Positions 7,711 to 7,784 of a stretch of 64,000 nucleotides of DNA are shown here, one piece after another. Source of the DNA: Longimicrobiales bacterium (GTDB lineage: Bacteria; Gemmatimonadota; Gemmatimonadetes; Longimicrobiales; Gaopeijiaceae). The notes under the pieces are model-generated. The model was not told the DNA's origin. It searched no databases and was given only the letters and a program-made list of their open reading frames with translations. Position 1 is the first letter of the stretch; every line of letters starts with the position of its first letter. The stretch is taken from positions 1,664,001 to 1,728,000 of the forward strand of contig CBDFMQ010000002.1 of the NCBI GenBank assembly GCA_965249725.1. Reading direction: 5' to 3'. Position numbers and translations under genes: made by a program.

Positions 7711-7784
7711 TGGACCGTGCGGGACTCGAACCCGCAGCCTCGCGCTAGCTAGACACATGCTCTTCCAATTTGAACTATCAGCCC
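7711..7784 (-). tRNA. Degenerate tRNA-like element, anticodon AGC (Ala-like)
   Basis: Cloverleaf GGGCTGA-TA-GTTC-AAATTGGAA-GAGC-A-TGTGT-CTAGCTA-GCGCG-AGGCT-GCGGG-TTCGAGT-CCCGC-ACGGTCC-A; G3:U70 and A73; weak anticodon stem, A7:A66 mismatch. Confidence 0.7.

Follow-up and report, generated by a model that had tools for sequence, protein, structure and literature searches.

A tRNA-Ala-like gene with an AGC anticodon in a probable IS1595 remnant of a Longimicrobiales genome

Described systems and the 7711-7784 gene

Insertion sequences of the IS1595 family that carry passenger genes have been described as transporter ISs (tIS; 10.1101/2021.05.26.445724, PMC8496243); in the accessible text of these descriptions, tRNAs are not mentioned among the passengers. 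Irregular tRNA genes in the neighborhood of transposons are also known already. According to the available portions of Mukai et al. (2017; PMC5389517) and of PMC7609411, allo-tRNAs are tRNA-like genes near transposon and toxin-antitoxin genes with diverse anticodons; some have G3:U70 and are charged with alanine, and some have destabilized stems and are inactive in translation. A third comparison is with the Streptomyces tRNAProA/tRNAProX type, of which, in the part of PMC10404621 that is accessible, tRNAProA combines AGC with proline identity and a synthetase of its own, and tRNAProX has C1:G72, A33 and A48, is encoded adjacent to ProRSx, and mistranslates alanine as proline. For tRNA genes as cargo of IS1595 elements no paper was found, in a search that took in few subscription papers.

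The gene considered here, read from 7784 to 7711, lies in a 64,000-nt stretch of a Longimicrobiales contig (CBDFMQ010000002.1), the whole of which is referred to as the window; it and the features around it are listed in Table 1. An initial annotation had described a cloverleaf with AGC at positions 34-36, G3:U70, A73, U37 and a G:U-rich anticodon stem, and this is borne out by ARAGORN, which returns tRNA-Ala(agc), by the Rfam tRNA model RF00005, and by parsing of the arms. The RF00005 score of 34.9 bits is above the gathering score of 29; for comparison, the tRNA-like element at 20950 scores 55.2 and the host tRNA-Ile 72. The acceptor, GGGCUGA/ACGGUCC plus A73, has the pairs G1-C72, G2-C71, G3:U70, C4-G69 and U5:G68, with an A7.A66 mismatch; the D stem includes U11:G24 and the D loop A20. 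The anticodon stem, UGUGU/GCGCG, consists of three G:U and two Watson-Crick pairs, and the loop is CUAGCUA (A34 G35 C36 U37 A38). The T arm (GCGGG-UUCGAGU-CCCGC) is perfect, the acceptor branch is of the 7/5 type, the variable loop is 5 nt, U33 and U48 are present, and so are all the invariant tRNA bases. The CCA tail is not encoded, as is also the case for most host tRNAs. In canonical tRNAs position 37 is a purine and the anticodon stem pairs mostly by Watson-Crick rules, and the gene departs from them in both respects (U37, three G:U pairs). Of the bacterial tRNA-Ala determinants, as given in the accessible part of PMC9976931, G3:U70, A73 and G2-C71 are present, and the minor determinants G4-C69 and G20 are replaced by C4-G69 and A20; C4-G69 is common to phage Ala tRNAs, among the matches listed.

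A pattern combining the AGC loop with the T arm matches twice in the window and not at all in 100 shuffles; the fold energy is unexceptional taken alone (z -1.13). The sequence of the gene is unchanged in seven of eight public runs from five studies (the eighth has no coverage there, and the window may itself derive from one of the eight). Assembly error is therefore not the origin of AGC, U37 or the A7.A66 mismatch. No promoter-like site was seen on the tRNA strand, a promoter and terminator scan being at chance level. In one run, X16, a contig aligned to window positions 7719-7763 holds another tRNA, with a fully paired acceptor, A73, and seven differences from the 7711-7784 gene over 45 nt; its flanks resemble those of the 20950 element.

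The likeness to allo-tRNAs, as these are portrayed in the available accounts, lies in the transposon vicinity, G3:U70 and a destabilized stem. Allo-tRNAs, however, have an 8/4 or 9/3 branch and a long variable arm, whereas this gene is a 7/5 type-I cloverleaf, and its anticodon box, unlike theirs, agrees with its identity; it is not an allo-tRNA. With tRNAProA/tRNAProX, in the accessible description, it has in common A34, AGC, annotation as tRNA-Ala, and A15. It differs from tRNAProX in G1-C72, U33, U48 and G3:U70, and among the 85 ORFs of the window no partner synthetase was found beside it or beside the 20950 element; it is thus not of the tRNAProX type either.

Table 1. Features of the window discussed in the text
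Feature	Position	Strand	Evidence or remark
tRNA-like gene, Ala-type body	7711..7784	minus	ARAGORN, Rfam, arm parsing, public runs
TIR-like site, inward-facing	7651..7674	+	profile of 68 terminal inverted repeats (TIRs) from relatives
IS481 transposase remnant, just beyond the TIR-like site	7529..7636	+	78-80% to a multicopy element
Passenger ORF, 139 aa	7888..8307	+	divergent from the tRNA
IS1595 transposase fragment, residues 82-100	8322..8378	minus	protein and nucleotide similarity
IS256, 3' part	8367..8993	+	NF033543; adjoins the IS1595 fragment
IS1595 with passenger genes, carrying the 20950 element	17760..21815	+	both TIRs, target duplication
Second tRNA-like gene, Arg-type body (A20, C3:G70), loop UUAGCGA	20950..21023	+	ARAGORN, Rfam, arms
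Mosaic mobile island with both tRNA-like elements	6702..41390		same-genus divergence point to integrase/tRNA-Ile end

Transposon remnants and the surrounding island

The initial annotation had both AGC elements on mobile DNA, and this holds, the mobile DNA being specifically IS1595. The carrier of the 20950 element has the paired TIRs and the target duplication (8 bp, ATTTATAT) by which IS1595 transporter ISs are recognized; its transposase frame (17843) is broken. The set of tIS features (IS1595 transposase, TIRs, 8-bp duplication, passengers) is complete in this element and present only as remnants around the 7711-7784 gene, and the cargo here, unlike that in the available tIS descriptions, includes irregular tRNA genes. 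The nearest homologue of the 20950 gene, at locus L236, is at 83% and has the loop UUUCCGA, and locus L202 holds an internally deleted homologue. These IS1595 ends presumably belong to the subgroup named ISNwi1.

For the 7711-7784 gene the case is pieced together from fragments. About 40 nt beyond the 3' end of the tRNA is a TIR-like site that ranks sixth of 127,952 window positions when all 24 profile columns are used and third of 127,958 without the first three columns (a post hoc choice), only the two true TIRs then scoring higher; the terminal GGG is missing. It is likely to be the degenerate right end of an IS1595, but it could alternatively be a diverged IS481 end. Upstream of the tRNA, and on the same strand, is a 19-codon fragment of an IS1595 transposase, with 15 of 19 amino acids identical to the transposases of L225 and L231. 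It is the top match in the genome outside known IS1595 transposase loci, at a genome-wide E of 0.002 for only 19 codons, and blastn gives 87% over 45 nt. The fragment and the TIR-like site each have the orientation that they have in most intact relatives.

The 139-aa passenger ORF matches no Pfam or NCBIfam family; distant homologues occur in 73 of 313 family genomes, its nearest Atlas clusters are commonest in Gemmatimonadota, and no intact element was reached by way of its homologues. A strain variant of the ORF diverges after 8303. In run X15 a variant of the ORF region shows five substitutions and an insertion, and the tRNA contig there is unchanged, the two possibly representing different strains. 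An IS256 remnant, which has a multicopy 627-nt match in two same-genus genomes, truncates this block near 8370, and the multicopy element matched by the IS481 remnant on the other side has an ORF of family NF033577. The 720-bp block between the TIR-like site and the transposase fragment (7651-8378) would most likely be a decapitated IS1595 with the 139-aa ORF and the tRNA, a reading to which two weak, concordant signs lead, the transposase fragment and the TIR-like site. Neither an intact copy of the block nor a target duplication was found, the second end being missing, and for this reason we infer the cargo status of the tRNA from its surroundings.

Both tRNA-like elements are part of a mosaic island: two same-genus genomes diverge from the window at about 6702, and an integrase and tRNA-Ile stand at 41390. 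One motif is repeated at the left end of the island (6842-6890), upstream of the relaxase module (23634-23690) and upstream of the integrase (40133-40153), and its relatives flank other tRNA-Ile fragments in the genome; the copies are probably integrase arm sites. A second, different IS1595 with inverted repeats (13839-15658) lies inside a leucine-rich-repeat gene region and is without tRNA cargo. Also in the island, at 25439-29188, is a gene for a protein of 1,249 aa that has a SIR2-like domain and may serve in defence against phages.

Relatives of the gene and of its carrier

The initial annotation had gone further, proposing a family of tRNA-Ala(AGC)-like RNAs from two divergent elements with the same rare anticodon; it had also noted a 22-nt stretch found in both window elements. 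That stretch is exactly as described (21 of 22 nt), and the other arms do differ (18 of 36 positions equal outside the variable loop and T arm). The 22-mer is, however, a common T arm. Thirty viral tRNA loci have it, and in them it accompanies nine anticodons other than AGC: UCU in 17, CGU in three, GCA, CCU and CAU in two each, and CCG, UGG, GUU and an irregular GAG in one each (AGC appears there in one viral UCU gene, but solely through an insertion). In an alignment of 58 positions, the 7711-7784 gene agrees with phage Ala tRNAs, among the matches listed, at up to 47 (median 41), with the 53 giant-virus AGC tRNAs compared at up to 41, with the 20950 element at 39, and with the 38 host tRNAs compared at up to 38. 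Because the bodies differ, the 22-mer is a common T arm, and the anticodons of homologues vary (L236, the 22-mer loci, the viral Ala bodies), there is no single tRNA-Ala(AGC) family, with neither a common body nor a conserved anticodon. AGC is likely to be one variant of a wider habit of IS1595-borne tRNAs with mismatched loops; the class that survives is broader, taking in IS1595-carried tRNA genes whose loops are irregular and often have an NGC triplet.

Phage and plasmid tRNA-Ala genes with a GGGC/GUCCA acceptor have the same acceptor type as the 7711-7784 gene, and such a tRNA-Ala would be its likely source. The viral loci with this acceptor were surveyed in the matches listed, 120 of about 210. 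Among these, the 75 standard-length tRNAs have the anticodons UGC (51), CGC (18), GGC (5) and CCA (1), and none has AGC; they have at most five non-Watson-Crick stem pairs against seven in the 7711-7784 gene, and their anticodon stems have four or five Watson-Crick pairs, none showing the three G:U pairs seen here. No IS1595 transposase lies within 2.5 kb of any viral Ala-acceptor tRNA among the same matches. Close homologues of the gene itself were not found by BLAST in 151 family genomes, where the matches inspected were ordinary host tRNAs, nor in the two same-genus genomes; phage and plasmid records gave nothing closer than ordinary Ala and Pro tRNAs, at 74-81%.

How uncommon is the anticodon? 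A restrictive AGC pattern run over 185,579 GTDB genomes, among which records close to the window's genome may be missing, gave 28 matches, which come down to 10 tRNA-shaped genes once 11 eukaryote-like repeats in two assemblies and seven matches not shaped like tRNAs are excluded. Only one of the 10 adjoins an IS1595 transposase: L082, in an actinomycete genome, has an Arg-type body with the loop CUAGCGA and lies 60 nt after the transposase. The tRNA-derived repeats of the two assemblies (L064, L070, L072, L075, L078, L079, L084, L085, L086, L087 and L089) would be taken wrongly for bacterial AGC tRNAs in a count; an AT-rich match upstream of L085 was rejected as eukaryote-like DNA. In a metagenome scan for AGC with a base other than A at 37, 59 of 61 matches belong to a single family of SINE-like repeats; the other two are L150 and L154, neither with an IS1595 transposase on its contig. 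L150, on a contig of 1,677 bp, has AGC with U37 on perfect stems and the same Ala acceptor as the 7711-7784 gene; its tRNA is divergent from a short ORF and is surrounded by a long non-coding region rich in GC. Four giant-virus-type tRNA-Ala genes (L154, L437, L442, L454) also have AGC and U37 on perfect stems. Since the loop recurs on perfect stems in L150 and these four, the AGC/U37 combination can be kept. Two AGC genes within 13 kb is far above the host-tRNA background, which is the wrong comparison because both are, on the reading given above, transposon cargo.

The cargo survey took in 80 loci with a relative of the 17843 transposase, almost all of them in genomes of the family to which this one belongs. 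Paired TIRs and a target duplication were found at 40 of them, 37 distinct; eight of the 37 have tRNA-like cargo inside their ends and 29 do not. These elements are kin, so the counts are not independent, and L531/L582 entered the survey after its tRNA had been seen. Further tRNA-like genes lie within 200 nt after the transposase at three loci where element ends were not found (L273, L290, L308). The full-length tRNAs lying beyond the ends of these elements were ordinary, and the IS1595 copies of the two same-genus genomes hold no tRNA cargo.

The full cloverleafs found in the survey all (10 of 10) have non-cognate or mis-sized loops, by our own reading of identity elements from the accessible part of PMC9976931. 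Their acceptor, D and T arms are kept, and the loops are either non-cognate or of 6, 8 or 9 nt. Irregular tRNAs of Cys, Arg and Leu type occur at L203, L206, L225, L231, L236, L237, L273, L280, L290, L308, L531/L582 and L082. Four Cys-like bodies have the loops CCUGCCAAA, CCCGCAA, CUCGCAAA and CUAGCAAU (7, 8, 8 and 9 nt), and GCA stands at 34-36 in none of them; four bodies of Arg type have UUUCCGA, CUGCUAA, CUCGCA and GUCGCA, that is, UCC, GCU and two 6-nt loops; there is a Leu-type body with CUUGGAC (UGG), plus one long-armed form. NGC stands at 34-36 in five of the 10 cloverleafs, or six if L203 is read as UGC, and AGC in one. The best candidates for mistranslation would be L280 (Arg body, GCU, with C35 and U36) and L290 (Leu body, UGG), in both of which the determinants of the body are retained. 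D-armless RNAs with the GGGC/GUCCA acceptor follow IS1595 transposases at L236 (2322-2390) and L308 (5117-5185); further D-armless tRNA-like RNAs were seen at L267 and L257, and all four have G3:U70 and A73. The anticodon arm of the L225 tRNA is present a second time, as a direct copy some 70 nt upstream of the gene, in the manner of an attachment-site scar.

A passenger released from decoding, and the alternatives

We give about even weight to the possibility that the 7711-7784 gene is a passenger that could be charged with alanine and whose anticodon arm has been freed from the demands of decoding. In the most likely history, an IS1595 would have captured a tRNA-Ala(UGC) of phage type, the anticodon arm would then have drifted, and the transposase would have been lost last. 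Descent from a UGC-type loop would take two changes, U34A and A37U, giving UAGCUA; since UUGCAA and UAGCUA are both self-complementary, a single hairpin-templated event could account for the two changes together. The drift of the arm is likely due to the host having no need of the gene for decoding: the host has one AlaRS and Ala tRNAs with GGC, CGC and UGC, and as these cover GCU, GCC and GCG, decoding by the 7711-7784 RNA would be redundant.

If the gene is transcribed, its RNA would be trimmed and receive CCA as host tRNAs do, and the host AlaRS would be expected to recognize G3:U70 and A73 and charge it irrespective of the anticodon. A34 would probably stay unedited. The host has a TadA-like gene and a tRNA-Arg(ACG), from whose loop that of the 7711-7784 gene differs at 35, 36 and 37. 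In the accessible text of PMC11066159, E. coli TadA makes inosine on three of 15 A34 tRNAs, and editing is blocked by loop changes at 32, 37 or 38 (a sentence there calling AGC fully edited is taken, from its context, as a slip for ACG). Decoding by the charged RNA would then be poor as well as redundant, with GCU as the codon read and GCC and GCG as possible further ones. In what is the weakest step of the proposal, transposons may keep the tRNA shape, and no particular codon, as a processing handle on element transcripts or as a decoy for tRNA-targeting proteins. Five of the six extra non-Watson-Crick pairs of this gene are G:U and not mismatches; about half of neutral transitions would yield A.C mismatches, making five of five G:U a 1 in 32 event by rough estimate. 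That the invariant bases are kept and the extra pairs are mostly G:U suggests that some constraint remains. The frequency of NGC among the relatives exceeds what free drift would predict, though the elements are kin. The single copy here sits in a dead element; it is probably marginal and may do nothing.

An unlikely alternative, in our estimate, is that the gene is a working A34 alanine decoder, one of a transposon tRNA set aimed at alanine codons, within which the Ala body would read correctly and NGC copies on Cys and Arg bodies would misinsert as tRNAProA does. The NGC triplets of the relatives do fall on two unrelated bodies, AGC is found in both window elements and in L082, and unmodified A34 Ala tRNA decodes codons ending in U, C and G (PMC11066159, accessible text). 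However, a one-base shift of GCA, GCG or UCG trivially yields NGC, and since ArgRS requires C35 and CysRS requires GCA (PMC9976931, accessible part), the NGC copies on Cys and Arg bodies may stay uncharged. The lack of a partner synthetase also counts against this reading, as do the anticodon stem of the gene, weakest of all Ala homologues compared among the matches listed, and the codon usage of transposases in AGC-carrying elements, which show no clear GCU excess (five of 26 Ala codons in L231; range 0-7 in 38 relatives).

No better, and no worse, are the prospects of a dead pseudogene, never expressed, decaying along with its broken transposon and without a role even in intact elements. This would suit a carrier cut on both sides by IS256 and IS481 remnants, an Rfam score barely over the threshold, the deleted homologue in L202, and the absence of tRNA-like cargo from 29 of 37 bounded relatives. 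It sits less well with the intact invariant positions and T arm, with changes biased to G:U, and with run X15, where the ORF region varies and the tRNA contig does not (possibly in different strains). More doubtful again is a bolder idea, that IS1595 elements breed tRNAs of their own: Ala-, Arg-, Cys- and Leu-type tRNAs would be captured and their loops retuned towards NGC, perturbing or rewriting the reading of alanine codons by the host, with the 7711-7784 gene as the member with Ala identity, an unedited A34 and U37.

Quite improbable is a shifted-register or quadruplet tRNA whose true triplet lies one base 3', serving frameshift-prone decoding or, via A20, recognition by ArgRS. Readings of this kind (A-GCU-A at 7711-7784, A-GCG-A at 20950, U-CCG-A in L236, N-GCA in the Cys-like bodies) restore the purine at 37 in the examples listed and make the triplet of the Arg and Cys bodies cognate, and two relatives have 8-nt loops; A20 is present in the 7711-7784 gene. 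But the stem of this gene closes a 7-nt loop and pairs in no other register, GCU is non-cognate for an Ala body, and the 17843 transposase is not broken at codons that quadruplet reading would match. Least probable of all is a degraded att-site copy of a host tRNA, a possibility raised in the initial annotation, or a eukaryotic or giant-virus tRNA-Ala(AGC): the island did integrate at tRNA-Ile and AGC is the normal eukaryotic Ala anticodon, but both origins are largely refuted by a longest host match of 16-17 nt, in the T arm, and by the closer similarity to phage Ala tRNAs than to the giant-virus AGC or host tRNAs compared, and the gene is full-length, with the tRNA-Ile fragments elsewhere in the genome.

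A34 tRNAs other than tRNA-Arg(ACG) are very rare in bacteria, with about 10 tRNA-shaped matches to the present pattern in 185,579 genomes. The passenger reading of the 7711-7784 gene offers one route by which they may originate, as transposon cargo with scrambled loops, and transposon tRNA genes of this kind inflate A34 counts. In this IS1595 lineage an irregular tRNA gene is present in roughly a fifth of the bounded elements; should the product of any be charged and used, mistranslation or tRNA decoys would have a mobile source in insertion sequences.
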